From assembly GCA_944392585.1 (NCBI GenBank), contig CALXXA010000053.1:1-56595 (forward strand): a stretch of 56,595 nt of DNA, given 5' to 3'. This DNA comes from an uncultured Alphaproteobacteria bacterium. GTDB lineage: Bacteria; Pseudomonadota; Alphaproteobacteria; CAAHEQ01; UBA3637. Both the position numbers and the translations under genes were made by a program. Shown here piece by piece: positions 4,452-19,815 of this stretch; the first letter of the stretch is position 1; every line of letters starts with the position of its first letter. Under the pieces are notes generated by a model. It was not told where the DNA came from, ran no database searches, and saw only the letters and a program-made list of their open reading frames with translations.

Positions 4452-4474
4452 TAAAACATACTAAAGTTTATTCC

Positions 4475-6049
4475 ATGTTCTTTTTAAAAAATTTTTTTCA
4501 ATGGTTTTCTTTAAATAAAAAAAATGTGTCCAAGAAAATATTTGTTTTGCTGTTTTTTGCGGGCTGTCTTTCTTCCTTTGGCTTTCAACCTCATTCGTGG
4601 ATATTCATTTTATTTATCACCTTCGGCGTATTATTTTGGATTTTAAATAAATGCTCTGATAAAAAATCTTTTTTCGGAACGGGTTTTTGTTTCGGGTTCG
4701 GATTAGGAGCCTGTTCTTTATCCTGGGTCGCAAACGCTTTAACAATAGATATACAAACATTCGGATGGGCCATTCCTTTTGTCCCTTTAGGTTTTGGTCT
4801 GCTGTTCGGTTTGTTTTACGGAATCTCAACCTTGGCTTGTTATAAAAGCTCTCCCGGGTGGAAAAGATTGTGTGTCTTCGCCGGAGCGTTTACTTTGTCC
4901 GAGTGGGTTCGCAGTTGGATTTTCACCGGCTTTCCCTGGAACGTATTGGGAAACGTTTGGACTGTTTTTCCTCCTGTTTTGCAAACAGCCAGCGTTTTAG
5001 GCGTTTTCGGTCTTTCTTTCATCAGTATTTTTTTGTTTTCCGGGTTATATTTCCTTTTTTCACGTCAATATAAAATACTAACGCTTCTTTGCGTGTTTTT
5101 CCTTATTATCTCAAGCGCAGGGGCTATCCGTTTGTTAACGGCGGAAAAAGCCTCTATTTGGGGACTGACCGTTCGTTTGGTTCAACCTGCTATTCCCCAA
5201 AACTTAAAGTGGAACGCCGACACTGCCGAAGATCATTTAATGGAACATATTCATTTGTCTTTATCTCCGGGAGCTAAAAAAATCACTCACTTAATCTGGT
5301 CTGAAGTCGCTACTCCTTTCCTGTTGGATCAAGACGATTATGCCCGAGCAATGACTATCAGCGCCTTACATCAAGAAGAAACTTTAATCACAGGATCTTT
5401 AAGAAAAGCCTCCTCCTCTCAATTAAGTAACAGCATTTTGGTCATCAACGATGTCGGACAAGTCGTCTCTTATTATGATAAATCTCATCTTGTCCCTTTC
5501 GGAGAATATGTCCCTTTCCAAAAAATTCTCCCTATGCAAAAAATCGTCCCCATAACGTCTGATTTCAAAGCCGGAAAAGGACCTCAAACCATTTCAATTC
5601 CTGGCGCTCCTCCCGCCGGTCTACTCGTTTGTTATGAAATTATTTTCCCAGGAAACGTCATCGACAGAAAATACCGCCCCGATTGGTTGATAAACGTCAC
5701 CAATGATGGATGGTACGGTCTTAGCGCAGGACCCTATCAACACTTGGCCGCCGCGCAACTGCGCGCCGTTGAAGAAGGCTTACCCGTCGTTAGAGCCGCT
5801 GGTTCAGGTATCAGCGCCATCATCAATCCCTACGGACAAATAGAAAAAAGCTTAAAACTCGGAGAAAAAGGCGTCTTAGACGGTTCCGTCCCCCAAAAAT
5901 TACCGCCCACCTTTTATTCGTTTTATCAAAATAGTCTTATTTTATTCCTCGCACTCGTTTCCATTCTCATGGGACAAATCCGAAATAAAAAAAACACGCC
6001 TCTTCATTCTCTTCGCCCCTTCCAAAGTAACAAAAAGTCTATATTCTAA
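4475..6049 (+). CDS. lnt: Apolipoprotein N-acyltransferase
   Basis: Multi-TM N-terminus, TGFPWN; nitrilase triad IWSE, YDKSHLVPFGEY, VCYEIIF; TNDGW. Confidence 0.95.
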   Translation: MFFLKNFFQWFSLNKKNVSKKIFVLLFFAGCLSSFGFQPHSWIFILFITFGVLFWILNKCSDKKSFFGTGFCFGFGLGACSLSWVANALTIDIQTFGWAIPFVPLGFGLLFGLFYGISTLACYKSSPGWKRLCVFAGAFTLSEWVRSWIFTGFPWNVLGNVWTVFPPVLQTASVLGVFGLSFISIFLFSGLYFLFSRQYKILTLLCVFFLIISSAGAIRLLTAEKASIWGLTVRLVQPAIPQNLKWNADTAEDHLMEHIHLSLSPGAKKITHLIWSEVATPFLLDQDDYARAMTISALHQEETLITGSLRKASSSQLSNSILVINDVGQVVSYYDKSHLVPFGEYVPFQKILPMQKIVPITSDFKAGKGPQTISIPGAPPAGLLVCYEIIFPGNVIDRKYRPDWLINVTNDGWYGLSAGPYQHLAAAQLRAVEEGLPVVRAAGSGISAIINPYGQIEKSLKLGEKGVLDGSVPQKLPPTFYSFYQNSLILFLALVSILMGQIRNKKNTPLHSLRPFQSNKKSIF

Positions 6050-6148
6050 AAATCGTAGCATTTTTTACAATTATTAATTGACCTTCGTACATTTTTATGC
6101 TTTATTAGAATAGTTACGTATTCAAAAGTATGGTACGGAGAAAACAGA

Positions 6149-6637
6149 ATGCAAAAAAAGAAATCTTTAAGAGGTCGCGTGGATGGAGCCCCTAATCCAA
6201 TTGACATCCATGTTGGAAATCGTGTTCGGATGAGACGCACTTTATTAGGAATGAGCCAAGAAAAATTAGGCGAAGAATTAGGTCTCACCTTTCAACAGGT
6301 CCAAAAATACGAAAGGGGAATGAACCGAATCGGCGCAAGTCGCTTGTGGGATATCAGTAAAGTCTTAAATACTCCCATAGAATTCTTTTATGAAGGTATT
6401 AATGAAGATATTGAACAATTAAGTCCTCGGCATATCAATAAAACAGATCATGCGGAAGGTTTGGAAGAATGTATCGCCTCTTTGGACGGAGACCCTATGA
6501 ATAGAAGAGAAACATTGGAATTGGTTCGCGCTTATTATAAAATTCCAGATAGAAATCTGGCCAAAAAAGTATTTGAATTAACAAAATCTCTAGCGACTTC
6601 CTTTAATGCTTCCGAAATAGAAAAAGAAGAAAAATAA
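6149..6637 (+). CDS. XRE-family HTH transcriptional regulator (conserved lnt-adjacent alphaproteobacterial type)
   Basis: PNPIDIHVGNRVRMRR...SQEKLGEELGLTFQQVQKYERGMNRIGASRL. Confidence 0.9.
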   Translation: MQKKKSLRGRVDGAPNPIDIHVGNRVRMRRTLLGMSQEKLGEELGLTFQQVQKYERGMNRIGASRLWDISKVLNTPIEFFYEGINEDIEQLSPRHINKTDHAEGLEECIASLDGDPMNRRETLELVRAYYKIPDRNLAKKVFELTKSLATSFNASEIEKEEK

Positions 6638-6714
6638 CCAAAAGACAATATGCTTTTTTTCATCTTTTTTTCTTTGAACTTTCCGATTATTTTATTAAAC
6701 ATAAGGAATGTATT

Positions 6715-6927
6715 ATGAAAAATCATTTATCCGAAGATTTATTAGAATCATTAAATGTACTGGATTTATTGCAAGAAGAAGGACTTAAAATCGTCCCTGC
6801 GTATCCTACTTCCGCTATGTTAAAAGCCGGAGCTCAAATAACAGGTCTTTCAGAGGAAACCGTCAAAAAACTTTATCTTTCCATGTTAAGTTTTTCCGAT
6901 GAAGAAATTCCTGAACAGAAAAATTAA
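6715..6927 (+). CDS. Small hypothetical protein with phage-like VPxxPTxAMxxAG motif
   Basis: AAGGA RBS; KIVPAYPTSAMLKAG...LYLSML; convergent with the end of the lysis cassette. Confidence 0.6.
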   Translation: MKNHLSEDLLESLNVLDLLQEEGLKIVPAYPTSAMLKAGAQITGLSEETVKKLYLSMLSFSDEEIPEQKN

Positions 6928-7151
6928 AACGTCTTTTTCCTTTCCTCCAACTGACGTTTTAATTTATAAAGCCGATTCATCCAATCGACAAAATAGGGAT
7001 GGTTTTCATCATTAATGAACTGCAATTCGTATTTTACCTGCGGATGCGGTTCTGGAAAAGGAGGGCAGTTATAAAACTGCCCTTTTTGATTACAACTTGT
7101 CAATAAGATGCTTCCACCGATAACAAGGCAAACTCGCAATATCCAGGTCAT
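6924..7151 (-). CDS. Small lipoprotein, putative o-spanin (Rz1-like)
   Basis: Lipobox LLTS-C, Pro-rich CPPFPEPHP; overlaps the upstream ORF in another frame; last gene of the phage-like operon. Confidence 0.6.
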   Translation of the reverse strand: MTWILRVCLVIGGSILLTSCNQKGQFYNCPPFPEPHPQVKYELQFINDENHPYFVDWMNRLYKLKRQLEERKKTF

Positions 7152-7272
7152 TTTGTTGTACTTTTATCTGTTTTTCAAGGTTGTTATTCTTGTATTTCAT
7201 ATTCAAATATGCTTGAATTAACCGCCAAAGGCATATTTTTTGAAGGATTGTCACCCAAAAATTTCTAATCAT
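7090..7272 (-). CDS. Putative i-spanin (Rz-like)
   Basis: Weakly hydrophobic N-terminus plus coiled-coil NNNLEKQIKVQQNDLD; start overlaps the holin-like gene's stop and its 3' end overlaps the lipoprotein gene. Confidence 0.45.
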   Translation of the reverse strand: MIRNFWVTILQKICLWRLIQAYLNMKYKNNNLEKQIKVQQNDLDIASLPCYRWKHLIDKL

Positions 7273-7444
7273 TTTTCCGAGCTTGTCCTACATTTAAAGC
7301 CAAAACATCCAAAACAGATCGAATTTTTTGGAAAAAAGCATCATCTTTAGGAGTCGGTGTCAAAGCGCAAACAGCACTTGCCGCCGTAACAATAGAAGAA
7401 ATAGCTATTAAAATATCTTGTATATGCGTTATAATAAAGTTCAT
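7265..7444 (-). CDS. Putative holin-like phage membrane protein (59 aa, absent from the ORF track)
   Basis: Manual translation MNFIITHIQDILIAISSIVTAASAVCALTPTPKDDAFFQKIRSVLDVLALNVGQARKND; AAGGGG RBS; TPTPKDD...LALNVG motif typical of small phage membrane proteins. Confidence 0.7.
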   Translation of the reverse strand: MNFIITHIQDILIAISSIVTAASAVCALTPTPKDDAFFQKIRSVLDVLALNVGQARKND

Positions 7445-7485
7445 ATTTTTTCCCCTTTCAAAATAAAATAGTTCTTCTTATTTTT

Positions 7486-7743
7486 CTAAAATAAGTTAAA
7501 AAATAATTGAACCACTCCCATACAAATAGCGCTGATTGTCGTCAAAACGACCATTGACAACATATTTTTAATCGGCATCCATTCCGCGCGACTGATAAAC
7601 CTCTTTTCAGTTTCTTTTTGCAAATTCGCCGGTAAAATTGCTATTTGCTGTCTTAATAAATCGATTTGAGTTTTCATTTCCGCAATATCTTGTTGAACAG
7701 CATCCAATCGAGCCATTAATTTCCCCAATTCAATATCTTGCAT
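7486..7743 (-). CDS. Phage membrane protein (coiled coil + C-terminal TM; holin/XhlA-like)
   Basis: ELGKLMARLDAVQQDIAEMK coiled coil and C-terminal hydrophobic helix; coupled to the hydrolase stop. Confidence 0.6.
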   Translation of the reverse strand: MQDIELGKLMARLDAVQQDIAEMKTQIDLLRQQIAILPANLQKETEKRFISRAEWMPIKNMLSMVVLTTISAICMGVVQLFFNLF

Positions 7744-8174
7744 TAAATAACCTCTCTATAAAACAAGTGATTGCCTAATTGAGCGCATGGAATTAAATGC
7801 CTGGCCCATGCCGGGTGAACAGACACCGCGTGATAATGCGTCGCTCCACCTGTTGTGTCTTTCAAAGTTCCGCTGATTGCTCGCATTGCAACATGTCGGC
7901 ACAGATAAAAAAGAGGTTCTTGATCCGTTATATTTTGAATAATTTCAAAGTTAACGTCATTTGGATTCCAGCAAGAAAATTGAAAAGGTTTCAAACAAAT
8001 TTCCTTAACACTGTTTCCCCACCAATATCCTTCTTTTTCTCGTGCTATGGCCCATCTGTTCATAATCACGTTAGCAACAGCTTCAATTCCCGTTAAGCCT
8101 TCTCCTCTTGCTTCTCCATAAAGAGTCCTCGCTAAAACATCTTTATCCTCATATCGTTCTTGTAATGAATTCAT
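7743..8174 (-). CDS. SleB-like cell wall hydrolase (Hydrolase_2), putative endolysin
   Basis: LARTLYGEARGE, AVANVIMNR, QFSCWN, TGGATHYH, GNHLFY. Confidence 0.9.
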   Translation of the reverse strand: MNSLQERYEDKDVLARTLYGEARGEGLTGIEAVANVIMNRWAIAREKEGYWWGNSVKEICLKPFQFSCWNPNDVNFEIIQNITDQEPLFYLCRHVAMRAISGTLKDTTGGATHYHAVSVHPAWARHLIPCAQLGNHLFYREVI

Positions 8175-9607
8175 ATTCCTTCCTCCTTAGAAAACCGCCA
8201 ATCCGGCTTTACTTTTAACGAATAGCTTCTTCTGGGCAGCCGAACCGGAGCATTTAACAAACATCCCGCAACAGCATCCACACCGTCATCATGATCTTTG
8301 CTTAAAGGATGCCAAGCTTCCATTTCTTTATAAAAAGCTGTTGTTTTTATTCTTTCATGAACTTTTAAACAGCCGTTTGCCAATAAAACATCGAAAGCGT
8401 CCAGTATTCTTTGAGCTTTCGCAGAATGTGACGTATAAGGCAAAACAGCACATTGAAAAGCATTTTCTCTGAAAGTTCTCTTTAAAATCTCTGGTAAAAA
8501 CTTCCCGATGCCGTTTGTTTCTACATAGACAGCCGGTAAATGATTTTTCTTTGCAAAATCAAGGACTTGATAACACTGTCTTTTAGCAGATTCATCTGTG
8601 TCCTCAACAATCATATACCTGATGTCGTGTAAATAATAAAACCCCTCGTCATCTTGAAAAACACAAGCAATAACGCTTGCGTCGGCTTTCTGAGATTTCC
8701 CAAACGCCGGATCCCAAAAACAAGACGCTCCTGTCATTCGCTTACCGTCTATTTTTAATTCCGCCATTTGATTACACTCTGTGTAATCTATATCACTCTG
8801 ATACCACTTAAGATTTTTTACATTTAATCTACTTTCCGTTAAGTTTGTCGGTTCCAACAGCATCTGACTGGCAAACTTTGCCGGACCGGAACGTTTTCTG
8901 ATACTCTCTATTTTGCTTTGAGAAAATCTCTCCGGCCACCAGGAATCTCCCGTTTTTGTAAATATCGGCAGCTTTAAAACATTAAACCCAAATAAAAAGC
9001 CTCCCGGATCCACGCTATAAATCGTATCAAAAGCATGCGGCGTCCCAATGTATAACATAAAACCCGCCGGGACCAAAATAAAATCCAATTCCGATAATTT
9101 TAATCTTAAATCCTCGCGTTTTGCCGGTGTTTCACTTGTTTTCGGAACTTCCACATCATCACAAATAATTAAATCCGCTCGACATCCCGTGATATTAGCC
9201 CCAAGCCCTCTTGCCAATACGGAAGGATCTCTTAATTCCAAAGAACGGCGAACAGTAAATCGATCCGCCGCCCATTGATCTTTTTGAGACGGTTTTAAAT
9301 GTTTTGTCAAAGGATGCTTTTCTATAACGCGTTTAATATTGCGAACCATTTTTTTAGCCAGTTCATAATCAGCGGCCATAATTAAAACACGCATATTCGG
9401 ATTTTGCTTAAGCACCCAAGCACAAAACAATCCGACAAGAGTCGATTTACCCGAATTTCGAAAAGCCATTAAAAGTCCTGACTGACGATTTTCCCAGCAC
9501 TCTTTCAAATACCTGCAAATACGCCGATGATGTTTTGGAGTCGTTAAATTTTGAGTTTTATTCCAAATCCAAACAAATTCTGTTAAATCAACATTCATCT
9601 TCAACAT
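8171..9607 (-). CDS. Terminase large subunit (T7-like)
   Basis: Walker A AFRNSGKS, GCRADLIICDDVE Walker B, IGTP coupling motif, nuclease WDPA and HDDGVDA. Confidence 0.92.
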   Translation of the reverse strand: MLKMNVDLTEFVWIWNKTQNLTTPKHHRRICRYLKECWENRQSGLLMAFRNSGKSTLVGLFCAWVLKQNPNMRVLIMAADYELAKKMVRNIKRVIEKHPLTKHLKPSQKDQWAADRFTVRRSLELRDPSVLARGLGANITGCRADLIICDDVEVPKTSETPAKREDLRLKLSELDFILVPAGFMLYIGTPHAFDTIYSVDPGGFLFGFNVLKLPIFTKTGDSWWPERFSQSKIESIRKRSGPAKFASQMLLEPTNLTESRLNVKNLKWYQSDIDYTECNQMAELKIDGKRMTGASCFWDPAFGKSQKADASVIACVFQDDEGFYYLHDIRYMIVEDTDESAKRQCYQVLDFAKKNHLPAVYVETNGIGKFLPEILKRTFRENAFQCAVLPYTSHSAKAQRILDAFDVLLANGCLKVHERIKTTAFYKEMEAWHPLSKDHDDGVDAVAGCLLNAPVRLPRRSYSLKVKPDWRFSKEEGI

Positions 9608-9881
9608 CCTCTAATTCCGCCACAGCATTTCGCGCGGCCTGTATCCAATCACTTTCTTTGTCTTGAGACATATCTTTTCCCAAGTGGAAGCTCATCAGCT
9701 TCAATAAAGTCAACAGGTGGCTTAAAGCACTTTTACAGGCTTGTTGATAAGCCGAAAAAGATTTCGCATCTTCCGGCAGAGGCGTTTGACAAAAATCCAA
9801 ATAATCTTTCCAAACTGTTTTTATTTGAACCGGCAACTTACGTTTGAACTGCTTTTGCAGCTTTAAAAAGTTTTCGGTCAT
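9588..9881 (-). CDS. Hypothetical phage protein, possible terminase small subunit
   Basis: Small helical protein directly upstream of and overlapping terL; positional inference only. Confidence 0.45.
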   Translation of the reverse strand: MTENFLKLQKQFKRKLPVQIKTVWKDYLDFCQTPLPEDAKSFSAYQQACKSALSHLLTLLKLMSFHLGKDMSQDKESDWIQAARNAVAELEDVEDEC

Positions 9882-9891
9882 AAGAACCTCT

Positions 9892-10242
9892 TTACACCAA
9901 CATAGCCGTGCTGATTTGAGCGCTTCCTGATATCAGGCTTTTTAGATTTTTTTTACTTTGAGCACTTAAATTTGCTTTAATTTGTTGAGCGGCGGAAGAA
10001 GCTATCTGCTGATTTTTTTCATTTGTTTCTTTTGTCAGATTTTGAATAACCGCCGCACTGGATCCTGAATCTGGATCGATACCCAAAGCTCCCATTTTAG
10101 CGCGCTGAGAACTAATTTGCTTTTCTAAGAGATTTTGATTATTTTGTTGTTCCGTCCATGCGTCATTTTGAATAGCCCTCACTTGTGATTTATCCGTGCT
10201 TATTCCCAAAGAATTTTGTAAAACAGATTCTAAACTACTCAT
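9892..10242 (-). CDS. Putative internal virion (ejection) protein, T7 gp14-like
   Basis: Gln/Ala/Ser-rich with SSQRAKMGALGIDPDSGS motif; follows the tail tubular genes. Confidence 0.55.
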   Translation of the reverse strand: MSSLESVLQNSLGISTDKSQVRAIQNDAWTEQQNNQNLLEKQISSQRAKMGALGIDPDSGSSAAVIQNLTKETNEKNQQIASSAAQQIKANLSAQSKKNLKSLISGSAQISTAMLV

Positions 10243-12150
10243 TTAATTACTCACTTTCATTTCCGTTGTAACCGAGACCACTTTGCATGGTTTCGGTTTT
10301 TCACTTTTAATCCGCCATAAAGGCGTCATCCCGTCTCTCACCCATCCAAGCGCGTGTAAGCACACGTCTTTTGTTAAAGGTTCCTGATCCTTATCCATTT
10401 GAAAACCTCCGGAAAATTTTGGGATCATAACTTCTTGCAGACCATTTCCCACATCCATCTCCACAGAACTCGTCCTGACGACGCGTAATCGTGCTTGAAT
10501 CAAACGAACAGCCTTTAAAGGTCCCGCTCCCATATCCGAAGAAACAGGCGGTAAAGGAACTATCTCATGAGTGAACGCTAAACCTACTTCAATTTTTTGA
10601 CAGGCAAAAGGTATTGTTAAATAATCATTTTCTATTGTCATATCCGGAATAATAATTCCATCAGCAATAATTTTTACTTTTCTTCCCATCAAAGGAGACA
10701 TTCCCGACCACAACTCATGAGCTCCCTCATGATCTTCCCCCAACAAAGCGCAATCCGTAAAGACCTCGTCATCAAAAGTTTCCAAACATATTTCGTTTTG
10801 CCGCTTTGTTAAAACATAGACATCATCTCCGACAACGCCGACGGCGATAAAAAGACCTTGAGTTTCTTGATGACTCCACGCTAAAACGTTTTCTGTTCGA
10901 TAGTTTGTTAAAGTCGCCATGCTCCCATCTTGCATCACAACATAAACAATCCGTCTGTTTGCGTCATATGCCATATCTATCGGATATCGGATTAAATGAG
11001 ACGATAAAAGAGAAACATTTTTTGCTTGATACGCTTGTTCAATGTCTTGAAATAAAAACTCTCTGACTTCTCGACCGCTTGCCGCAACAAATAATGTCGC
11101 TCCGGACACATCTATGGGAGGAACGCTGGCATATAACGGAGATCCGACCAACGTCTGCCTTTTTAATTGAATATTTGTCGGAGTTAACGGATCTCCGGAA
11201 ACCATCCACTCAGCCCCGGAAGTAAAAATTTGTAAATGTCTTCCCGGAACAACCGCTCGAATAGCATTCACTTGATCCGATAAAATAGAAAATTCTATGG
11301 CTTCATCATCATTTCCTTCTCCCAAGTCAAAATTCATTATGCGAGCTGTCTTTGACAACCATAATCTGTTTGGTAAGTCTCTGGAACCGCCGATGACAAG
11401 CCTGCTCTGGAAAAAAGTCACCGAAGAAGGATAACCGCGGACGGAAGAAAACGCTGCTTCTTTCCAATCCGCCGTTTCAGAAACATCTTTTAAATCTTGT
11501 ATTACCTTCGCTTCGGCAATTTGAGAAGAAATAACATTAAAAATCTCTACTTCTCCTCCGTTTAGCCGAAAGCGAATTCCCACATGTCCTTCTTCAAAAA
11601 AAGGAGCCGAAGTACTCAAAGAAATGTTTCCCGACTGTTGAGAAGGTTTTATAGAAATGGTTGTGTCGCCAAACCGAGCATAAGGCTGCAATATGGCGCC
11701 GTCTTGAGATGTTTCATAAATCCAATTTGTCAAATTCCAAGTTTCACCGACTTGTCTTGTAATCATCACGGGAGGATAATTCGGATGCACAACAAGCAAC
11801 GTATCCGCGCTTTGCGTCCAATTCAAAAAAGGAATATCCTTTTCTTCCCACGGTGTTTGTAAAGTCGCTATCTGTTTTTGCGCACGAAAAATCCGAATCA
11901 AGTTCGGACAAACAACAAATAAATATGTTTGCTCTGTGTTAAAAGTAAAAGGAATTAATCTAACCGCATTTGGAATTTTTTCAATTAATCTTAATCCCGC
12001 TCTTCGCTCCACACCGCCGATAGCGTCGATAAATACATTTTTTAATGTAGCCGCTCCGTTGTCGTAACATGTCAAATCCGTTCTTCCCAACACGTCTTCA
12101 GATACTTCTCCGGAGGTAAAATTCGTTTTATGATGAATAACCTGGCTCAT
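10243..12150 (-). CDS. Tail tubular protein B / nozzle (T7 gp12-like)
   Basis: NFTSGEVS...GRTDL, GGVERRAG, QSADTL, GYPSSVTFFQSRLVIGG; start re-placed at MSQVI by ATGA overlap with the upstream gene. Confidence 0.85.
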   Translation of the reverse strand: MSQVIHHKTNFTSGEVSEDVLGRTDLTCYDNGAATLKNVFIDAIGGVERRAGLRLIEKIPNAVRLIPFTFNTEQTYLFVVCPNLIRIFRAQKQIATLQTPWEEKDIPFLNWTQSADTLLVVHPNYPPVMITRQVGETWNLTNWIYETSQDGAILQPYARFGDTTISIKPSQQSGNISLSTSAPFFEEGHVGIRFRLNGGEVEIFNVISSQIAEAKVIQDLKDVSETADWKEAAFSSVRGYPSSVTFFQSRLVIGGSRDLPNRLWLSKTARIMNFDLGEGNDDEAIEFSILSDQVNAIRAVVPGRHLQIFTSGAEWMVSGDPLTPTNIQLKRQTLVGSPLYASVPPIDVSGATLFVAASGREVREFLFQDIEQAYQAKNVSLLSSHLIRYPIDMAYDANRRIVYVVMQDGSMATLTNYRTENVLAWSHQETQGLFIAVGVVGDDVYVLTKRQNEICLETFDDEVFTDCALLGEDHEGAHELWSGMSPLMGRKVKIIADGIIIPDMTIENDYLTIPFACQKIEVGLAFTHEIVPLPPVSSDMGAGPLKAVRLIQARLRVVRTSSVEMDVGNGLQEVMIPKFSGGFQMDKDQEPLTKDVCLHALGWVRDGMTPLWRIKSEKPKPCKVVSVTTEMKVSN

Positions 12151-12716
12151 CCGCGCACTCCTATCAAAGGGAAATCCCAAATAGCATTCGGAATAGATTG
12201 CTGTCCGTCTATCAATTTTGCATTTTTAAACTCATCTTCTGCCGCCTTTGTTAAATATTCCGCTCTGGAAGTGCTTTCCGTTAAAGGCAAACAAAACTCC
12301 GCCGCCAATCTGGCAATCAAAGCCTGGTCAAAAAACGGTGGAAAGTTTATTTCTTGAGGACGAAAAACATATGTTAAAGTAATTTGCTTTTGATTCGCAT
12401 GCAGCTTATTCTCATGAATACGATAATCTACTCCTAATCCTCGCCGCCCCGAGCCACAAGAAATCGCTCGTAAAAAATCAGCCGGCAACGCAAATGCATA
12501 CTGATAATCGGCAAAAGGTTCCTCTTCCAACAAAGCTAATCCCGTTTGAGCCGTCGCAAAACGCCACGGATGTGCCGATAACATTGCATCTCTCACAGAT
12601 CCGTATAAATAAAAAGCCACATCTGCTTCCGCCGTTCCTTCATGAAAAGATGAAATACCTTGAGCCCCTATTTTAATTAACGCACGCGAACATAAAGCTA
12701 TCGCCGTAGATGCCAT
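12147..12716 (-). CDS. Tail tubular protein A / adaptor (T7 gp11-like)
   Basis: ALCSRALIKIG...RDAMLSAHPWRFA...YAFALPADFLR...FDQALIARLAAE; start re-placed at MASTA after AAGGAGG RBS. Confidence 0.85.
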   Translation of the reverse strand: MASTAIALCSRALIKIGAQGISSFHEGTAEADVAFYLYGSVRDAMLSAHPWRFATAQTGLALLEEEPFADYQYAFALPADFLRAISCGSGRRGLGVDYRIHENKLHANQKQITLTYVFRPQEINFPPFFDQALIARLAAEFCLPLTESTSRAEYLTKAAEDEFKNAKLIDGQQSIPNAIWDFPLIGVRG

Positions 12717-12734
12717 TTTTTCCTCCTTTTTTTT

Positions 12735-12765
12735 AAAAAAAAGGGACCTCTTTAAAAGGTCCCTT
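12735..12765 (-). terminator. Intrinsic terminator directly after the major capsid gene
   Basis: AAGGGACCT/AGGTCCCTT 9-bp stem followed by a U-tract on the minus strand. Confidence 0.8.
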
Positions 12766-12772
12766 CCACTCA

Positions 12773-13615
12773 TTAAGCCGCTTTATCTAAAATTTCAAAC
12801 TTGACGACACCTTTTGTATCAATCAAACACGCTCCTTGACTCATCATGTTGTTGACAAAATGAGCCGCATAATCTCCATGCCATGTAATGTCCGTCTTAA
12901 TGTCCATTCCAACAGCATGCCCCACCGCGTTTTTATGATAAATAAAACATGTATGCGAAGCCGTTTCTCCGGATCCAGACGCCGGTAATCCCGTGTGCAT
13001 AATAAAGTTAATTCCTAACCATTTACGACTTTCACACCCCGCAACAAACGGCGTTTTATTTCCAACATAATCCGCACTTGAAAATTCTTCAATCGACAAT
13101 AATTGATTCCATGCTTGAGGAGAAACTATTGCATATCGTTCTCCATCATCCGGAACATCCTCATTGTTCAATAAAGTAAAAGCTTCTAAAATCAAAGCTT
13201 TTGTTAAAGTTGTTGCACCAGATCCAACGCTTGTTGTTGTTGTCTTTAAAGCGTTAATAATCAATTCGTCCGTTTTACGACCTAAAGCATATGCTCCCGC
13301 TTGAGCAACAACTTTTCGTTCGTCATGCCCGACTTTCAATTCGTCCAAAGAATCAACCCATTCTCCCGCATAATAATCGCTTAAAACACATTCCTTAGGC
13401 GTATGCGACAACTTCATAGTCGGTACTTGCCCATTCCGCGTTTTTGTCGCTGCAACTCCTTTTCCTATTATCTGAAAAGTCGTAGACGCTCCTTGAATAT
13501 TGCTCTTGGAACGAACAGTTGATTTCAATTTAGACCCCATTTGACTATATGCATTCACCACTTCCGCTTGAAAGTGCTTGATAAAAGATTGATCTATTGA
13601 ATTTATTTCTGCCAT
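12773..13615 (-). CDS. Major capsid protein (podovirus type)
   Basis: FIKHFQAEVVNAYSQMGSKL, AYALGRKTDELII, LNNEDVPDDGERY, WLGINFI; AAGGAG RBS; lies between scaffold and tail tubular genes. Confidence 0.88.
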   Translation of the reverse strand: MAEINSIDQSFIKHFQAEVVNAYSQMGSKLKSTVRSKSNIQGASTTFQIIGKGVAATKTRNGQVPTMKLSHTPKECVLSDYYAGEWVDSLDELKVGHDERKVVAQAGAYALGRKTDELIINALKTTTTSVGSGATTLTKALILEAFTLLNNEDVPDDGERYAIVSPQAWNQLLSIEEFSSADYVGNKTPFVAGCESRKWLGINFIMHTGLPASGSGETASHTCFIYHKNAVGHAVGMDIKTDITWHGDYAAHFVNNMMSQGACLIDTKGVVKFEILDKAA

Positions 13616-13663
13616 TTATTTCTCCTTTTTATTTAAACCACGCTCAGTCTTTTTCGACTTCGC

Positions 13664-14356
13664 TTAAGATGATGGATATAACCGCCGAAATCCTTCCGTC
13701 ACCTGACGAACAAAATCAGGATCTTGTTCTTTCCAGTATTTCGGATCCATCATCATTTTTTGTAAACTCGCTTCATCCGTCGGCGTATATTTTTCTTGCC
13801 CATTTGACATAATTTTAGGTTCTTTGCTTTGCATCATGTTATATAAAGTCATGACTCCTTCATATGTTCCCGCCAACGCACTTAAAATCGCCGGCGAGAC
13901 ATTTTGCTTCGCCCATACGGCAAGTTGACGACTCACCTCATTCCATTTTTCTTCTCCGCCAAAATGCCTGATTAAGGCTTCTTTTTGTCTGTCGGACTCA
14001 TAATCCGCCGCTAACTCCTCAATAATAGGTAAAATTTTCGTCGCAGCTAAATCATAAACCGCTTGAACTTGCTTGTTTGTAAAACCTTGTTGAAACAACA
14101 ACTCATTAACTTGCGGATCACTGGATAATAATTTATGATGACATGTTATTTCGTATTGATCCGATGTCTCTGGAACGCCTAACGCTCTGTAAAAAGCCTG
14201 CTTTTGCTCTGTCGGCGTCGTCTCGTCCGGAATTAAAAACATATGTTTTGTTTTTTCGCGTAATTCCCGATACGCATTGTATAAAGCCTCCACGTCTATT
14301 TGACCATCCGATCCTTTAAACGTATCCATATTTGTTTCTTCCATTAAATTTTCCAT
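13664..14356 (-). CDS. Capsid assembly (scaffolding) protein
   Basis: Acidic protein, FYRALGVPE...Y, C-terminal MMDPKYWK...VRQV..GF.RLY; upstream of the capsid gene. Confidence 0.8.
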   Translation of the reverse strand: MENLMEETNMDTFKGSDGQIDVEALYNAYRELREKTKHMFLIPDETTPTEQKQAFYRALGVPETSDQYEITCHHKLLSSDPQVNELLFQQGFTNKQVQAVYDLAATKILPIIEELAADYESDRQKEALIRHFGGEEKWNEVSRQLAVWAKQNVSPAILSALAGTYEGVMTLYNMMQSKEPKIMSNGQEKYTPTDEASLQKMMMDPKYWKEQDPDFVRQVTEGFRRLYPSS

Positions 14357-14371
14357 ATTTTCTCCTTTTCT

Positions 14372-14635
14372 TTAAGACAACAGCGATCCTCGCCCTTGCT
14401 CTGTTAAAGCCTCTATATGAGACACCAATGCTCTTTGACCTTCTAAATAACGCATTTCGGTCTCGCTTGCAGATGAAGCCAATACGCGTTCTTTTGTTAT
14501 TTTCCTTAAATAATTCAAAATCTTAGTACCATCACTCGTCTGAAAACACCGCGCAAAAGAACGAGAAATCGAAAGTCTCTCATCTAAAACGGCTTCCGTC
14601 GTCGTATTATTTAAAAAAGACCAACCCGTTTTCAT
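14372..14635 (-). CDS. Bbp19-like small phage protein
   Basis: FQTSDGTKILNYLRK...EGQRALV..IE pattern between portal and scaffold. Confidence 0.7.
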   Translation of the reverse strand: MKTGWSFLNNTTTEAVLDERLSISRSFARCFQTSDGTKILNYLRKITKERVLASSASETEMRYLEGQRALVSHIEALTEQGRGSLLS

Positions 14636-16095
14636 TTATTTTCTCCCTCTTTTGAAACATTTTCCGCCGCTTTAATCAACTCCATCGGAACGTTCAGCGT
14701 TTCGCCAAGCCATCTCACAAAAGCCGGAACATCCAAACATTCATACGCTTGAGAACCCAATGCTCCCAAACTGGAAAGCCATGTCAAAGCATTATTCGCT
14801 TTTTCCGTGCTCTGTTTGCGCGCCAACGGAGATTGATATCCCACATCAACAATACGCCCGTCTATATATATCTCCGGAATTTCTCCCCGCCGCCTCAATA
14901 TACTGACGGCTCGCTCTATCAACGGATTGAGAAGTTCTATTTGTAAACGGCTGTAAGTGGCTCCCAACACCTCCACCATGTCGCTCGAACGCTCCAACAC
15001 CTCGGTCGCCGTCATTTTCGGATCCGTTATTTGTCCTAATTTATCCACCAACAGCGCATGTCTGATACGTGCTCGCAAGTCATTTAAAACCAATTGAGAA
15101 ACATCAAAACTCCCCGCTGCCTCTAAAGGAGTCAATCCTTTAGATCCAACAGCTTTCGGAATAATCGCTCCAGGAGTTAATCGAATATTCGCCGGATTCA
15201 AAACTCCGTCATCTTCCGCTTGCCAAATGCCGGTTACAGAGATTGTCGCATTTTTTAAAATCAACTCAACCACTTTATTAACGGTTTTAATGTCTGGTAA
15301 AGCCTTCATCACCGGAGAACGTCCATAAATCTCTCCGGGAGCCTTCAACCATCTAAACGTAATAAACGGCGACTCGGTAAAACGTCCTTCTTTTAATACC
15401 GTAAATTCGCCAGCTCCCTCATATGCAAAAATCCGATAATCATACCCTCCCTTCAAAGACGGAATAACAGCTTCTATAATATTCGCCTTTTTTTCCTTTT
15501 CTCTCATGTTCTCTTTAAAAGAAGAAGGAATGTCTTTTTCTCCAAATCGTTTTTCCATCTCCTCCAAGCTCATCTCATGATGCCGGAAAGTTACATCCAA
15601 ACGCCCTGTATTTCCTTCTTCAACATAAAGCTCGCTTAAAGGAACCGCCGTAAATTTAAAAGCAGAAGATCCTCCTATTTTTTCTTCTTCAAACAGCAAA
15701 CAAGCCGTTCCAACCGTCACTAAATCTAAAAAGCACTGATGCAGCTCAACAACAAAAGAAGATCTGTCAAAATGACCTTGAAGAATATTAGATATATTTT
15801 CAAGCCCTTGACTGGCTTGACGAGCAGCTTCTCCATATAAATCAGCACCAACGCATAAATCAAACCACCTGCTCCAAGCCGGCGTCAACTCCGATAACAT
15901 AGAAGCCGCTAATTGATCCACACTGTCAGGTGCCGTTCCATCAAACAACGTATCCGTTTGTAATACATTTTCACTCAATACACCTTCTCGTTGAGGCAGC
16001 GAAAAAGCATAACACTCTTTCCATGTGGATTCTAATTTGTCTCTGCGTGCTTTTGCTTTTAAAAATCTCTGATAAAGTTTTTCCGTTGAAATCAT
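14632..16095 (-). CDS. Portal (head-tail connector) protein, T7-type
   Basis: FDGTAPDSVDQLAASM...LTP..SRWF, GEIYGRSP..ALPDIKT, MTATEV; start re-placed at MISTE after GGGAG RBS. Confidence 0.9.
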   Translation of the reverse strand: MISTEKLYQRFLKAKARRDKLESTWKECYAFSLPQREGVLSENVLQTDTLFDGTAPDSVDQLAASMLSELTPAWSRWFDLCVGADLYGEAARQASQGLENISNILQGHFDRSSFVVELHQCFLDLVTVGTACLLFEEEKIGGSSAFKFTAVPLSELYVEEGNTGRLDVTFRHHEMSLEEMEKRFGEKDIPSSFKENMREKEKKANIIEAVIPSLKGGYDYRIFAYEGAGEFTVLKEGRFTESPFITFRWLKAPGEIYGRSPVMKALPDIKTVNKVVELILKNATISVTGIWQAEDDGVLNPANIRLTPGAIIPKAVGSKGLTPLEAAGSFDVSQLVLNDLRARIRHALLVDKLGQITDPKMTATEVLERSSDMVEVLGATYSRLQIELLNPLIERAVSILRRRGEIPEIYIDGRIVDVGYQSPLARKQSTEKANNALTWLSSLGALGSQAYECLDVPAFVRWLGETLNVPMELIKAAENVSKEGENK

Positions 16096-16096
16096 T

Positions 16097-16291
16097 TTAC
16101 TCTCCCAATAAAGTTTTACGCACAGGCGCGTCATCTTTTAAATTCAACAAACCTCTCATGGAAGTTTGCACTGTTTCCATTCCCGCTTGTCGAGCTAGAT
16201 AACTATTGTCGCGCTCACTTGTTTTTGCTTCCGAAACAACAACATTCGGAACTTTAGTGTCTATTCCTATTATTTCTTCAACTTTCTTCAT
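16097..16291 (-). CDS. Small phage protein upstream of the portal
   Basis: Ends TSMRGLL...RKTLLGE, a C-terminal pattern typical of the small pre-portal gene of podoviruses; first gene of the operon. Confidence 0.65.
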   Translation of the reverse strand: MKKVEEIIGIDTKVPNVVVSEAKTSERDNSYLARQAGMETVQTSMRGLLNLKDDAPVRKTLLGE

Positions 16292-16347
16292 TATTTTATC
16301 CTTTATTCAAAAGCTCTTATCCCGACAGACAAAACCAGAAGAGGTTT

Positions 16348-16379
16348 AACAAAAAACCTCCTGAAAAATCAGGAGGTTT
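16348..16379 (-). terminator. Leader terminator upstream of the structural operon
   Basis: Perfect 11-bp stem AAACCTCCTGA/TCAGGAGGTTT, 4-nt loop, U-tract on the minus strand. Confidence 0.8.
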
Positions 16380-16414
16380 AATTTGAATACACTTCTATCG
16401 GGTTACTAAAGACT

Positions 16415-16458
16415 CTTATACCACACTTTTATTCCTATGTCAAGGATTTTTTTCCTAT
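16415..16458 (-). promoter_or_regulatory. Sigma70-type promoter of the structural operon with overlapping operator-like sites
   Basis: Minus strand TTGACA(16443-16438)-N17-TATAAG(16420-16415) with extended -10 TG; GGAT-N4-TTCC at 16444-16455 and half-site TTCCTAT at 16432-16438. Confidence 0.75.
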
Positions 16459-16836
16459 TTTTAACAAATAGCAATATAATTGATAAGGCGTCCAAATTCG
16501 CCTATCGGTAATACCGACAAATCTTTTAGCCGTTTCGACACAAGTATAAGGCATAATTTTCATTTGATGTTTTGACGGCGGAGAAATGGTTGTTTCAACG
16601 ACGCGATAGCCATGAGCGAACAAAAAGTTTTTTAAATCGCCGTCTGTCACCAGAATTAAGTCGGTATAATGAGCCAAAGGATCGATTAAAACCCATCCGT
16701 TTTGAGAGTCTCCCAAAGCGACGACACAATGATAGAATCCTTTTTTTAAAAAGCGCATCCACCAAAAAGTCGGAGATCCTCCGAATCCGATTAAAGCCTT
16801 TGTTTGTCTAAAACCTCTGCATTTCGGGCCAATCAT
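16435..16836 (-). CDS. Hypothetical protein, possible permuted papain-like (NlpC/P60) cysteine hydrolase
   Basis: GFYHCVVAL (His) ... PYTCVETAKRFVG (Cys) ... WTPYQLY. Confidence 0.55.
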   Translation of the reverse strand: MIGPKCRGFRQTKALIGFGGSPTFWWMRFLKKGFYHCVVALGDSQNGWVLIDPLAHYTDLILVTDGDLKNFLFAHGYRVVETTISPPSKHQMKIMPYTCVETAKRFVGITDRRIWTPYQLYCYLLKIGKKSLT

Positions 16837-16845
16837 TTCAGCCCC

Positions 16846-17256
16846 CTAATGGTAATTACATTGTAAATACATTTCAGAGCTAAAATCATCCTCATCCGGC
16901 TGCACTATCCCTTTGCTTATCAATATCGGTTCCATCACAAATAAAGCATCTCTCCATAAACGACATTCATCAAAACTCGCGCCAAAAGAAATATGCGGCG
17001 GCATCTGCTCTAAACCATATTTTGATAAGACTCTGACATGATATTGCTTCAAAATCCCTTTCAATACCAATCTTTTCAAAACTATTAATATATCACTCGC
17101 TTCACAAGGCCTCGCCACACTCCTCCTCGCAGAAGAAAATCTTCCTCGATTTCCTTTATGCGTCTCACACCAACAACACCATAACCATGCCTCTTCCGCC
17201 GTATAAAACGGCTCACCTTGCCTGTAATCAGCTCTTAAGCCGGATTTTCTGATCAT
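16846..17256 (-). CDS. Hypothetical protein, candidate activator/antiterminator of the cluster
   Basis: Basic helical protein (PF.TAEEAW.W, RPCEASDI, RLWRDAL..MEP.L.SKGIV); divergent from the repressor; start re-placed at MIRKS after AAGGGAG RBS. Confidence 0.55.
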   Translation of the reverse strand: MIRKSGLRADYRQGEPFYTAEEAWLWCCWCETHKGNRGRFSSARRSVARPCEASDILIVLKRLVLKGILKQYHVRVLSKYGLEQMPPHISFGASFDECRLWRDALFVMEPILISKGIVQPDEDDFSSEMYLQCNYH

Positions 17257-17296
17257 TTTCTTTTCTCCCTTCATAGAACAAATCATGAACATTATA

Positions 17297-17397
17297 TGTA
17301 TAAGAAATTTTTTTCTCATTGTCAATAAAAAAATAGGTTTTTTTTCCTATTTACAAACAAAAATTCCTATGCTATATTGTTTTCAGGAATTTATTCA
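17297..17397. promoter_or_regulatory. Back-to-back promoters with repeated operator-like palindromes
   Basis: Minus TTGACA(17325-17320)-N17-TATACA; plus TTTACA(17350-17355)-N17-TATATT; ATAGG-N8-CCTAT at 17333-17350, GGAA-N4-TTCA at 17386-17397, TTCCTAT at 17364-17370. Confidence 0.65.
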
Positions 17398-17413
17398 AAA
17401 AAGGAAAAAAAAT

Positions 17414-18049
17414 ATGCATCTCTCTTATGTGGAAATTTGGAAAGGAATTGATCAACTCGCCTATACCAAAAAAATGTCTTTATCAGCTATGGCTCAAAAA
17501 GCCGGTTTGGATCCAACCGCTTTCAACAAAAGCAAACGCGTCGGACCTGACGGCAGAAAAAGATGGCTTTCAATGGAAAGTCTCAATAAAGTTCTCAACG
17601 CGACAAACACAACTCTTGATGAGTTCATCCGACTCACCGGCCAAAATATAGAACCTTCACGACAAACCATTCCTCTTTTAGGCTTCGCTCAAGCCGGATG
17701 CGACGGCTTCTTTGATGACGCCGGCTTTCCCATAGGCAGCGCCGGATGGGATGCTATTTCTTGTCCGATGAGCTTGGATAAAACCGCTTACGCTTTAGAA
17801 GTGTGTGGATCCAGCATGGAACCTGTCTATCGGGAAGGAGATCGTTTAATCGTCAGCCCGGATTCCGAAATCAGAAAAGGCGATCGAATTGTCTTGAAAA
17901 CAAAAAACGGTGAAGTCATGGTTAAAGAACTCAAAAGACAAACCGCCTCCTTCGTCGAATTAAAATCCTTAAACCCAGCTCATCCGGATCGTTCTTTCCC
18001 TATTCAAGAAATATCTTGGATGGCGCGCGTTTTATGGGTCAGTCAATAA
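17414..18049 (+). CDS. HTH + S24 peptidase (CI/LexA-like) repressor, conserved alphaproteobacterial type
   Basis: IWKGIDQLA...SLSAMAQKAGLDPTAFNKSKR..DGRKRW; Ala-Gly site AQAG; catalytic GSSMEP Ser and VMVK Lys; start re-placed after AAGGA RBS. Confidence 0.88.
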   Translation: MHLSYVEIWKGIDQLAYTKKMSLSAMAQKAGLDPTAFNKSKRVGPDGRKRWLSMESLNKVLNATNTTLDEFIRLTGQNIEPSRQTIPLLGFAQAGCDGFFDDAGFPIGSAGWDAISCPMSLDKTAYALEVCGSSMEPVYREGDRLIVSPDSEIRKGDRIVLKTKNGEVMVKELKRQTASFVELKSLNPAHPDRSFPIQEISWMARVLWVSQ

Positions 18050-18298
18050 AATTTCTTTTACAAAAAACACTTTATTCACAATAAACTATGAATAATATTT
18101 GATGTCTTCTCTTTGTTTTTCATAATATAAAATGAATTAATATATATTATTTTATTATTTTTACTTGTTAAGTTGTATTTTTTCTTTCCCTATGAGGTGC
18201 GCCAATTTAAAATTATTTCCCACTTTAATATGAAATTTAAAACAAACCTTGCGCTTTTTTAAAAATCTTCATATACTGATTAAAAAAAGGACTTTTTT

Positions 18299-19009
18299 AT
18301 GAGCTGTCGTGAAATTGTATGGGATACGGAAACAACAGGATTCGATCCTTTCTCCGGCGATAAGATTGTTGAAATCGGCGCCGTGGAGTTGATTAATCAC
18401 TTAAAAACAGGAAAAACTTTCCACAAATATATCAATCCTTTGCGCTCTATGAGCGAGGAAGTGATTCGTGTTCATGGATTAACAGAAGAATTTTTGTCTG
18501 ACAAGCCTATCTTTGAGGAAATTTGCAACGATTTTTTGGATTTTATCGGAACAGATTCTCATCTTGTCGCTCATAACGCCTCTTTTGATATGAAATTTAT
18601 TAATTATGAACTCCAACAAGTCGGCAAAAATCCTATTCCAGACGACCGCGTCATTGATACTCTTTTAATCGCAAAAAAGCTCTTTCCCGGAAAAAAAGTC
18701 AATCTAGACGAACTGTGTCGGCGTTTTCATATAGATAATTCCGCCAGAACCGTTCACGGCGCTCTGTTGGATGCAGAACTCTTGGCTGACGTTTATTTGG
18801 AACTCCTCGGAGGGAAAGAACCTTCCTTCCTTCTATCTCAAGAAGATTATTCTCCCTTTGATTTAACCGTCTCCTCGCAAAACAAAAAACGAGAACCTCG
18901 ACTTTTCTCCATCCCGGAAAAAGACTTGCAAAATCACTTGTCTTTTATTCATTCCATGAAAAATTCTCTCTGGCTGCAAAATGAAAAAAATGAAAAATCT
19001 CACAATTAA
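18299..19009 (+). CDS. dnaQ: DNA polymerase III epsilon subunit
   Basis: REIVWDTETTG, VAHNASFD, HGALLDAELLA.VYLEL.GG (DEDDh). Confidence 0.93.
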   Translation: MSCREIVWDTETTGFDPFSGDKIVEIGAVELINHLKTGKTFHKYINPLRSMSEEVIRVHGLTEEFLSDKPIFEEICNDFLDFIGTDSHLVAHNASFDMKFINYELQQVGKNPIPDDRVIDTLLIAKKLFPGKKVNLDELCRRFHIDNSARTVHGALLDAELLADVYLELLGGKEPSFLLSQEDYSPFDLTVSSQNKKREPRLFSIPEKDLQNHLSFIHSMKNSLWLQNEKNEKSHN

Positions 19010-19475: not shown

Positions 19476-19520
19476 ATTAAATTAATGTTCAACAAGTTTA
19501 CAAAGAAAAAAGAGTTCTTC

Positions 19521-19715: not shown

Positions 19716-19815
19716 CTTGTTTTTTTATATAAAAGAACAAAAAACCATTCTCTTTTCCAAAAAAAAATAATTTTTTTAAAAAGAATTCTTTACAAAAAGA
19801 TATTTTTGTTTAAAA

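Follow-up and report, generated by a model that had tools for sequence, protein, structure and literature searches.

The question raised by this locus is whether a compact set of phage-like genes, lodged among core genes of a small bacterial chromosome, is a prophage, the remains of one, or machinery that the host lineage has made its own. The genes stand at positions 6924 to 18049 of the window, by which we mean the whole stretch of 56,595 nucleotides analysed here. It is one contig (CALXXA010000053.1, our C53) of the genome of an uncultured alphaproteobacterium (GCA_944392585.1, our G000; 1.16 Mb, 55 contigs, estimated 100% complete). A sequence-only reading had proposed an independently domesticated, podovirus-type element resembling gene transfer agents (GTAs) and not an active prophage. 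Synteny, distribution, phylogeny and selection support this proposal, while the packaging of host DNA is something we infer. The element is most likely a particle module derived from a podovirus, domesticated and inherited vertically, and GTA-like wherever sequence allows a test. We hold its vertical inheritance and domestication to be very likely; that it makes particles carrying host DNA which benefit the lineage through transfer is probable, with moderate confidence.

Phage-derived genes for particle, packaging and lysis sit here in the host chromosome, as judged from the list of open reading frames (ORFs) and from matches to the Pfam and PHROGs families, against which 20 ORFs of cluster and flanks were scanned. 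Seventeen closely packed ORFs, all on the minus strand, fill positions 6924-17325, and the T7 virion module is represented by a gp8-type portal, gp9 scaffold and gp11/gp12 tubular proteins (coordinates are given in Table 1), with the gp17-type fibre adaptor encoded on another contig. The cluster measures 10.4 kb, as against 34-40 kb for T7-like and HTVC010P-like podoviruses, and its GC content (0.36-0.43) falls within the values seen across the window. Among the ORFs of 6924-18049, Pfam and PHROGs gave no match to an RNA polymerase, to DNA replication genes or to the gp15/gp16 internal core, and among the 20 scanned ORFs none to an integrase, excisionase, replication or RNA polymerase family. 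The cluster is not enclosed by direct repeats of at least 14 nt, no tRNA lies in positions 1-30000 of the window, and no tyrosine recombinase was found within 20 kb of the cluster in any of five complete relatives. Means of self-propagation were thus not found, and the fibre gene lies on another contig. The cluster is flanked by mnmE, gidA, lnt, XRE and o6715 on one side and by dnaQ, gidB, parA, parB and maf on the other. The family scans, the ORF list and the repeat search therefore bear out what had been read from the letters alone, namely a minus-strand operon for a T7-architecture head and short tail, a divergent HTH-S24 (helix-turn-helix) repressor, core-gene flanks (lnt/XRE, dnaQ), and no integration, replication or RNA polymerase gene and no att repeat.

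Within the host family, the element is present or absent by whole genera. This family equals its whole order and was sampled with 80 species genomes. An orthologue of the portal, accepted at E 1e-100 or better, was found once each in 53 of them. Ten genera carry it (g1 3/3 plus G000, g12 5/5, g6 3/3, g3 10/10, g4 21/21, g11 6/6 and four single-genome genera) and in six genera it was not found (g2 0/21, g9 0/2 and four single-genome genera). Even bins of 59-63% completeness contain the cluster. Of 401 genomes sampled evenly across the class, 51 (from 47 of 308 genera) have one copy each, consistently within families, and the family around a metagenome-assembled genome (MAG) labelled Azospirillaceae has one copy in 86 of 121 genomes (71%). 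Furthermore, a scan of one genome per species confirmed at least 584 stretches out of 600 candidates. The best 80 of these at least 584 matches, hereafter the named loci, have portal identities of 54-61% and belong to alphaproteobacterial MAGs from animal guts and to named genera, among them Magnetospirillum, Paramagnetospirillum, Telmatospirillum, Caenispirillum, Terasakiella, Haematospirillum and Magnetovibrio. Portals of 55-60% identity also occur in MAGs titled Lactobacillales, Bacteroidota, Solirubrobacterales, Lactobacillaceae and Mycobacteriaceae (loci L037, L059, L068, L080, L084 and L112), which are probably mislabelled or mis-binned.

The gene order is conserved across relatives, as the sequence-only reading had expected. 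We fetched 18 loci from the family and two other families, three of them cut by contig ends. They are collinear and open from the S24 gene through o16846, o16435, portal, Bbp19, scaffold, capsid, tubular A and tubular B onward to small genes, TerL, hydrolase and membrane genes, all of which are intact. The named loci agree, with the portal in 80/80, the S24 gene adjoining the cluster in 73/80, o16846 in 74/80, o16435 in 76/80 and the scaffold in 77/80; these loci extend 10 kb downstream, and counts of later genes drop mainly for that reason. Cellular-type genes break into the cluster in the larger genomes of free-living relatives, which fits a host-maintained locus better than a genome that needs packaging. 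In G121 a 1265-aa hybrid sensor histidine kinase (PAS, HisKA, HATPase and receiver domains) stands between scaffold and capsid on the same strand (L126 8981-12778). At the same place G177 has a 12.6-kb insert (L125 7156-18800), with six paralogous PG_binding_1 proteins on the cluster strand and Sel1-repeat proteins interleaved on the other. One clade of gut MAGs (L075, L078, L080, L101, L102, L103 and L110) has a variant order, in which the TerS-like gene, TerL and hydrolase follow S24-o16846-o16435 and precede the portal-to-tubular B block.

The phylogeny of the cluster broadly follows that of the hosts. When portal, capsid, tubular B and TerL of 26 genomes are concatenated, the resulting tree has 14 of 23 splits in common with the RpoB tree; 1000 label shuffles reach 0.2 on average and 3 at most. 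Patristic distances of cluster and RpoB correlate at r 0.89 (0.94 within the family), the slope being near 1.8. Both trees agree on the genus groupings, on the two main clades of the family and on the order of the three nearest outgroups. Enlarging the set to 35 genomes from 18 families leaves 18 of 32 splits in common with RpoB (shuffles at most 2), deep host clades among them.

Purifying selection, which had also been anticipated, was confirmed in two species pairs. Between G001 and G002 the cluster-wide ratio of nonsynonymous to synonymous divergence (dN/dS) is 0.051 over 3393 codons, with a synonymous divergence (dS) of 0.66 next to 0.62 for rpoB, and the per-gene ratios all lie at 0.009-0.14, small ORFs included. 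The pair G008 and G022 has a dN/dS of 0.094 and a dS of 0.077 vs 0.11 for rpoB. Because synonymous divergence is equal, the copy single and fixation genus-wide in genomes of 0.7-1.5 Mb, neither the decay of a remnant nor circulation as a prophage can be the main explanation. On the RpoB tree, the genomes without the element fall within groups of carriers (G009, sister to the window's genus; G010; G015; G007; and genera g9 and g2 together), which implies about five losses. In G009 the site is empty, and lnt-XRE-o6715 leads directly into mnmE-gidA with no remnant. A patchy distribution with an empty site in close relatives had been named in advance as a sign against domestication. An empty site does exist in the sister genus, but on the RpoB tree it is best read as one of these about five losses. 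The XRE regulator beside lnt looks degraded in G009 (L189 9750-10157), with a frame of 68 aa and three TAA codons in the match.

A further line of evidence is the tail fibre. Between tubular B and TerS, the relatives G186 and G167 encode a gp14-like protein, a tail fibre or spike with a T7 gp17-like N-terminal adaptor (phrog_1640), DUF6127, a lysozyme and a holin, where the window holds only two small genes. The fibre homologue of G000 is found on the 4.2-kb contig C33 (E 7e-48, 43% identity over the adaptor; phrog_1640 E 1.5e-26), adjoining an acyl-ACP (acyl carrier protein) thioesterase and a major facilitator superfamily (MFS) transporter. The adaptor is present in 46 of the 53 element-bearing family genomes and in 2 of the 27 element-free ones (one strong, one weak), counts in which related genomes are not independent samples. 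In all 46 genomes it is located outside the cluster, 42 times on another contig and four times at 10-38 kb behind host genes. In Caenispirillum, M. molischianum, Terasakiella and Haematospirillum it is located inside the cluster, about 6-8 kb downstream of the portal. The gut lineage has therefore dispersed an essential virion gene, a state also known for RcGTA and incompatible with a self-transmitting phage.

Three observations on these loci may be added. The fibre gene of the window's genome (G000:C33 1-1016) runs off the contig end, and contig-end fibres are also present in several other genomes, which suggests strain-variable C-terminal parts that break assemblies. The cluster-free genome G015 has a fibre-adaptor homologue (L192 7159-7656, on G015:C10; 44% identity, E 3e-42) that could be a remnant or part of another element. 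The holin of G186 (L114 6040-6444) matches GTA_holin_3TM (Pfam: PF11351) with E 1e-20 and has no counterpart in the window's cluster.

The divergent gene upstream of the cluster appears to encode the regulator of the element. Its longest ORF spans 17285-18049, with the likely start at ATG 17414, and the translation contains a GSSM serine motif, a downstream lysine and an Ala-Gly site. The possibility that this S24 protein is the host LexA was rejected, as a better-scoring S24 gene is found on C34; elsewhere the genome encodes RecA and a second S24 protein, the probable LexA. The late promoter is near consensus (TTGACA at 16443-16438, a 17-nt spacer and TATAAG at 16420-16415) and overlaps the stop codon of o16435. 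About 40 nt downstream of it follows a GC-rich terminator hairpin of 11 bp (16379-16354) and then a T run. The layout of promoter, leader and hairpin, with differing stem sequences, was found in 13/13 family loci and in 7/17 loci outside the family, and is the arrangement of lambda PR'-tR'. Together with a weakly Q/AlpA-like protein, it suggests SOS-triggered antitermination. An 18-nt motif at 17335-17352 recurs with 17/18 identical positions at 16443-16460, abutting the -35 of the late promoter. Of 20 loci scanned, 4 to 6 have a similar AGGA-N6/7-TCCT word in both regions, early and late, which serves as a lead only.

The weakly Q/AlpA-like protein is o16846, with a likely start at ATG 17259 and a dN/dS of 0.089. 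The best VIA-align matches of its model are phage 21 Q (6jnx_P, Z 6.1 over 90 aa) and AlpA (7xyb_G, Z 5.7 over 89 aa), followed by sigma region 4, scores which are all inside the noise range for helical proteins. The nearest named Atlas cluster, "putative Q protein" at 0.80, is a weak lead only. A profile search of PDB had no significant match for o16846, and PHROGs matched 0/31 of its homologues. For the neighbouring o16435 (dN/dS 0.031), the VIA-align matches are TseH (6v98, Z 8.0 over 110 aa), YiiX (2if6, Z 6.5) and a cysteine peptidase (3kw0, Z 6.0), with the next row at Z 4.6. Its His36 and Cys99 are invariant in 32 sequences and the Atlas lead is Peptidase_C92 at 0.78; the PDB profile search gave no significant match. 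Foldseek against PDB found no match at E <=0.001 for either model (E 3.3 for o16846). Neither of the two genes, though conserved, belongs to an established family. The predicted hydrolase could cut the cell wall or process a protein.

From these parts, the following course of events can be proposed. DNA damage would activate RecA, whereupon the S24 repressor would cleave itself and the early transcript would give o16846 and the cysteine hydrolase o16435. Given the layout and the weak fold likeness, o16846 might act like Q or AlpA and let RNA polymerase from the strong late promoter pass the terminator into the 16-gene late operon. Portal, scaffold and capsid would build the head and tubular A and B the short tail, to which the separately encoded fibre would attach. 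TerS and TerL would fill the heads with DNA present in the cell, mostly host DNA because the element cannot replicate, and the hydrolase, holin and spanins would lyse the producer. Since no gp15/gp16-type ejection proteins are encoded, recipients may finish the uptake via ComEC, DprA and RecA, as for RcGTA; all three are encoded in the 1.16-Mb genome.

Several points weigh against this interpretation. The approximately unbiased (AU) test rejects the exact RpoB topology (p 0.0004), so that congruence with the species tree, as predicted beforehand, held broadly but not to the exact topology. NCBI genus labels on the portal tree of the 80 named loci are barely non-random (6 changes vs a mean of 7.8 and a minimum of 5 in shuffles), a test given little weight because 57 of the 80 loci are without genus name and several MAG titles are plainly wrong. 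Loss in about five lineages, the sister genus included, means that the element is dispensable. Moreover, control by a CI-like, SOS-cleavable repressor looks prophage-like, unlike the CtrA and quorum control of RcGTA. The Q-like and papain-like assignments are weak, as they come from matches of Z 6-8 inside the noise range of the tool. ComEC, DprA and RecA are also present in most control genomes and are hence permissive only, and delivery is conjectural given that gp15/gp16-like ejection proteins were not found by Pfam and PHROGs among the cluster ORFs. Packaging, particle content and transfer are inferred from genes. T7-type terminases normally cut at specific concatemer junctions, and random packaging is therefore not assured.

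This last point leads to the alternative that survives best, a killer particle (bacteriocin-like, as PBSX) or a packaging from a fixed site into the adjacent chromosome (similar to lateral transduction), which in this genus would favour oriC-proximal genes. The same evidence from distribution, tree and selection would apply to both, and a T7-type terminase suggests site-specific initiation. The C-terminal parts of the fibre vary among relatives in length and type, as expected for strain-specific targeting, from at least 338 aa in the window's genome and 363 aa in L114 to 708 aa with a pectate-lyase fold in L128. Terminase, portal and scaffold are however kept at dN/dS 0.04-0.07, which argues that DNA filling matters, and a pure killer would not need it. 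For the site-directed variant, the position of the cluster is relevant. It is located 1.8 kb from two parS-like sites (19817 and 19874), called with the parS consensus, and the lowest point of the cumulative GC skew falls near 24-25 kb. Outside the genus, gidB-parAB is no longer a conserved neighbour; lnt adjoins the element in many genera, on varying sides. The predicted proximity to oriC and parS thus stands for this genus but not for other genera of the family, so a raised gene dosage is no general feature. We consider the killer and the site-directed particle unlikely.

A helper that puts one particular mobile element (a satellite, plasmid or island) into its particles would likewise be a structural and packaging module without its own replicon, and the small putative TerS without assigned role would be in line with it. 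Yet no conserved partner element was seen adjoining the cluster in the fetched or named loci, and in the 1.16-Mb genome tyrosine recombinases are limited to three complete genes and a fragment, with two likely to be XerC/D by their scores. We regard a helper as quite improbable. The comparison of the portal with plasmids had nothing above 30% identity and no alphaproteobacterial replicon.

Nor is it at all probable that the loci represent a family of temperate podophages which is still active and infects these hosts anew, relying on the host, or on genes at other sites, to replicate and integrate. In favour of such phages, a CI-like repressor and divergent promoters are a classic form of prophage control, 474 contigs with relatives of the portal are classed as viral in IMG/VR, and the Atlas clusters of o16846 and o16435 homologues are mostly labelled viral. 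However, the proviral calls of IMG/VR from isolate genomes are only 15-25 kb long and start 2-3.4 kb upstream of the portal. A portal of 54% identity is also encoded on a 5,084-bp unverified "Bacteriophage sp." scaffold from the virome of human faecal samples (MT838907.1, L193), which would fit such phages and could equally be packaged host DNA or contamination of the virome preparation. A temperate phage is hard to reconcile with the single, genus-consistent copy, with a dS equal to that of rpoB and a tree congruent with the host, with the missing att repeat and tRNA and the missing recombinase in the 5/5 complete genomes, with a fibre unlinked in 46/46 family genomes that have it, and with host-type genes such as the 1265-aa kinase and the PG-binding arrays inside the cluster of relatives. 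The closest phages are Pelagibacter podophages with portal identities of 30-35%, and TerL has at most 32% identity to any phage record. Two family genomes contain a second, distant podovirus-like head-tail cluster (L031 on G002:C2 and L032 on G010:C1), whose portal, capsid and tubular A/B are 26-38% identical to those of the window and which may be true prophages.

A defective prophage decaying without function is the least probable of all, for although replication and integration genes are lacking and the element was not found in 27 of 80 family genomes, sister genus included, all genes are intact across the 18 fetched loci, dN/dS is 0.051 and 0.094 in the two species pairs with small ORFs included, and retention within ten genera of such small genomes is 100%.

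Table 1. Features of the element and its regulatory region in the window, from the repressor to the lysis genes (aa, amino acids; pLDDT, predicted local distance difference test score).
Feature	Coordinates	Strand	Evidence
HTH-S24 (CI/AlpR/LexA-like) repressor, predicted self-cleaving	17414..18049	+	PF00717 E 1e-22; phrog_4 E 2e-28
Divergent early regulatory region	17260..17413	both strands, promoter-like sites	promoter scan and sequence
o16846, 137-aa helical protein, candidate Q/AlpA-like antiterminator	16846..17259	-	AlphaFold model pLDDT 88
o16435, 133 aa, predicted permuted papain-like (NlpC/P60-YiiX type) cysteine hydrolase	16435..16836	-	model pLDDT 91
Late promoter, leader, intrinsic terminator	16348..16443	-	sequence and terminator scan
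Small pre-portal gene, 64 aa	16097..16291	-	ORF
Portal, T7 gp8 type, 487 aa	14632..16095	-	PF12236 E 6e-129
Bbp19-like small protein	14372..14635	-	PF25181 E 1e-12
Scaffolding protein, T7 gp9 type	13664..14356	-	PF05396 E 3e-13
Major capsid protein, 280 aa	12773..13615	-	PF19821 E 1e-71; phrog_3437 E 5e-75
Tail tubular protein A/adaptor	12147..12773	-	phrog_394 E 1e-45
Tail tubular protein B/nozzle	10243..12180	-	phrog_376 E 7e-134; PF25675 E 5e-6 (below cut-off)
Small internal-virion (gp14-like) protein	9892..10242	-	phrog_418 E 2e-5, weak
Putative small terminase TerS, 97 aa (o9588)	9588..9881	-	position only; phrog_31793 (family without assigned function)
Large terminase TerL	8171..9607	-	phrog_38 E 3e-88; PF17289 E 1.5e-12
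SleB-type cell-wall hydrolase (endolysin)	7743..8174	-	PF07486 E 1e-18; phrog_938 E 6e-22
Four small lysis-region genes (o7486, o7265, o7090, o6924)	6924..7743	-	translations

Some of the entries in Table 1 need comment. The longest portal ORF is 14632-16134 and its start was moved, probably correctly, since relatives carry a stop upstream. The pre-portal gene, without a family match in Pfam or PHROGs, is present in part of the relatives (10/80 named loci) and has a dN/dS of 0.14. The capsid protein is 91-93% identical inside the genus, with a dN/dS of 0.027. For tubular A the likely start is 12716, giving 189 aa, which matches the ORF lengths of relatives. At the position of the gp14-like gene, the protein of L114 matches T7_gp14 (Pfam: PF24072) with E 7e-4, below the cut-off. 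The 97-aa gene o9588 has no significant match in the PDB profile search and immediately precedes TerL without exception, even in L075 and L101, where the order is rearranged. The TerL translation shows the P-loop GKST and a DD-containing Walker B motif. In the lysis region, the translations indicate a holin-like o7486 with a C-terminal helix, one helix in o7265, and an overlapping pair o7090/o6924 that is spanin-like, o6924 having a lipobox. The region matches phrog_1193 (E 3e-4) and phrog_9685 (E 1e-15); o7486 and o7265 are found family-wide, o7090 in the genus only and o6924 in the genus and a few other loci.

The window's own strain was detected in chicken-gut and bird metagenomes of several studies, as contigs of bulk metagenomes. 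A 19-kb contig from another study is collinear with the window over gidA-lnt-XRE-cluster, with 113 differences and the same junction between lnt/XRE and cluster. MAG contamination as the source of the cluster was rejected, because several genomes have lnt, gidA and dnaQ on the same contigs as the cluster. Our search for virome or particle DNA data found none, the runs found being bulk metagenome contigs. In the window gidA (2577-4451) and gidB-parA-parB (19816-22218) are split by lnt, XRE, the cluster and dnaQ; these genes are usually adjacent in Alphaproteobacteria. Contig joints that skip 8-17 kb (e.g. 3711 to 20563) were rejected as traces of excision, their sides being only 20-34 nt with 90% likeness; they probably come from other organisms with adjacent gidA, gidB and parA.

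If the domesticated module is what it appears to be, a T7-architecture element fixed in hundreds of alphaproteobacterial species would widen the range in which GTA-type exchange is expected, affecting streamlined animal-gut symbionts, magnetotactic bacteria and plant-associated bacteria. Forms with the fibre in the cluster and forms with it dispersed would, in addition, provide a natural series in which the conversion of a phage into a host organelle could be studied. Cultured carriers exist, which makes the question directly testable. Virus-detection pipelines count these loci as proviruses, and prophage counts in these clades are thereby inflated. As a tentative proposal, to which we give slightly less than even confidence, the element represents a third, independently domesticated alphaproteobacterial GTA family. 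It would derive from a T7-architecture podovirus, be present as a single, vertically inherited copy in about one eighth of the sampled species, including cultured Magnetospirillum, Caenispirillum and Terasakiella, and be controlled by an SOS-cleavable repressor and a Q/AlpA-like switch. In the gut lineage domestication would have advanced further, the fibre gene having moved out of the cluster, and the element may underlie the particles of about 10 kb of Azospirillum lipoferum. This last link is a lead, the element being very common in the family with the Azospirillaceae-labelled genome. Strains of A. lipoferum release particles with random host DNA of about 10 kb, the genes for which were never firmly identified according to PMC3899980. 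A formal classification and a known genetic basis exist for only three GTA lineages, according to PMC9662315.

Among the known systems, the nearest in lifestyle is RcGTA (Rhodogtaviriformidae). Like it, the element is a phage-derived module for head, tail, packaging and lysis without replication and integration, with vertical inheritance across orders, purifying selection, an attachment gene at a separate locus and ComEC/DprA available. Unlike RcGTA, which is siphovirus-like with an HK97-family capsid and a prohead protease, the window has T7-type portal, scaffold and tubular proteins; the HK97-family capsid (Pfam: PF05065) had no match in G000, whereas a Caulobacter control matched. Moreover, RcGTA is under CtrA/GafA and quorum control, while here an SOS/CI-like control with antitermination would apply. 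The RcGTA properties used in this comparison follow PMC9662315 and general background.

BaGTA of Bartonella (Bartogtaviriformidae) is also alphaproteobacterial and co-evolves with its host, and short-tailed or tail-less particles are reported for it in PMC9662315. According to PMC3610622 and PMC9662315, its cluster runs from TerL (1344 bp) and portal (1863 bp) onward to a tail fibre and depends on an adjacent run-off replication origin. By these descriptions it is set apart from the order portal-scaffold-capsid-tubular A/B-TerS-TerL and the 487-aa T7-type portal of the window. For reduced Rhodospirillales and Holosporaceae symbionts, GTA homologues have been described with RcGTA as reference and a siphovirus-style tail stopper and terminator (PMC9254644). 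A podovirus-type GTA in Alphaproteobacteria is not described in the literature located, within the accessible parts of its articles; supplementary tables of PMC9254644 and PMC9662315 list Rhodospirillales GTA homologues and could bear on this, and as a sign of novelty this negative result is limited. In 2026 a GTA-like element proposed to be podovirus-like was reported from the Firmicute Faecalibacterium prausnitzii (FpGTA), with two loci and packaging experiments; PMC12946183 calls it the first of its kind. It shares with the element of the window a gut host, two loci and the proposed podovirus-like character, the one of the window being known from genes alone; the host in the Firmicutes sets FpGTA apart.

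In its gene order (portal-scaffold-capsid-tubular A-tubular B-internal protein-fibre-TerS-TerL) the element resembles T7-like and HTVC010P-like podoviruses, from which it differs in being chromosomal and single-copy and in having no RNA polymerase, DNA polymerase, primase/helicase or gp15/gp16. Its control region recalls the AlpR-AlpA-alpBCDE system of P. aeruginosa and the Q systems of lambda and phage 21, with an S24 repressor divergent from a small regulator and a promoter-terminator ahead of the effector operon. The modelled fold of o16846 appears weakly similar to 21 Q and AlpA. Unlike in those systems, sequence similarity of the regulator is undetectable and the target operon here is the whole particle.

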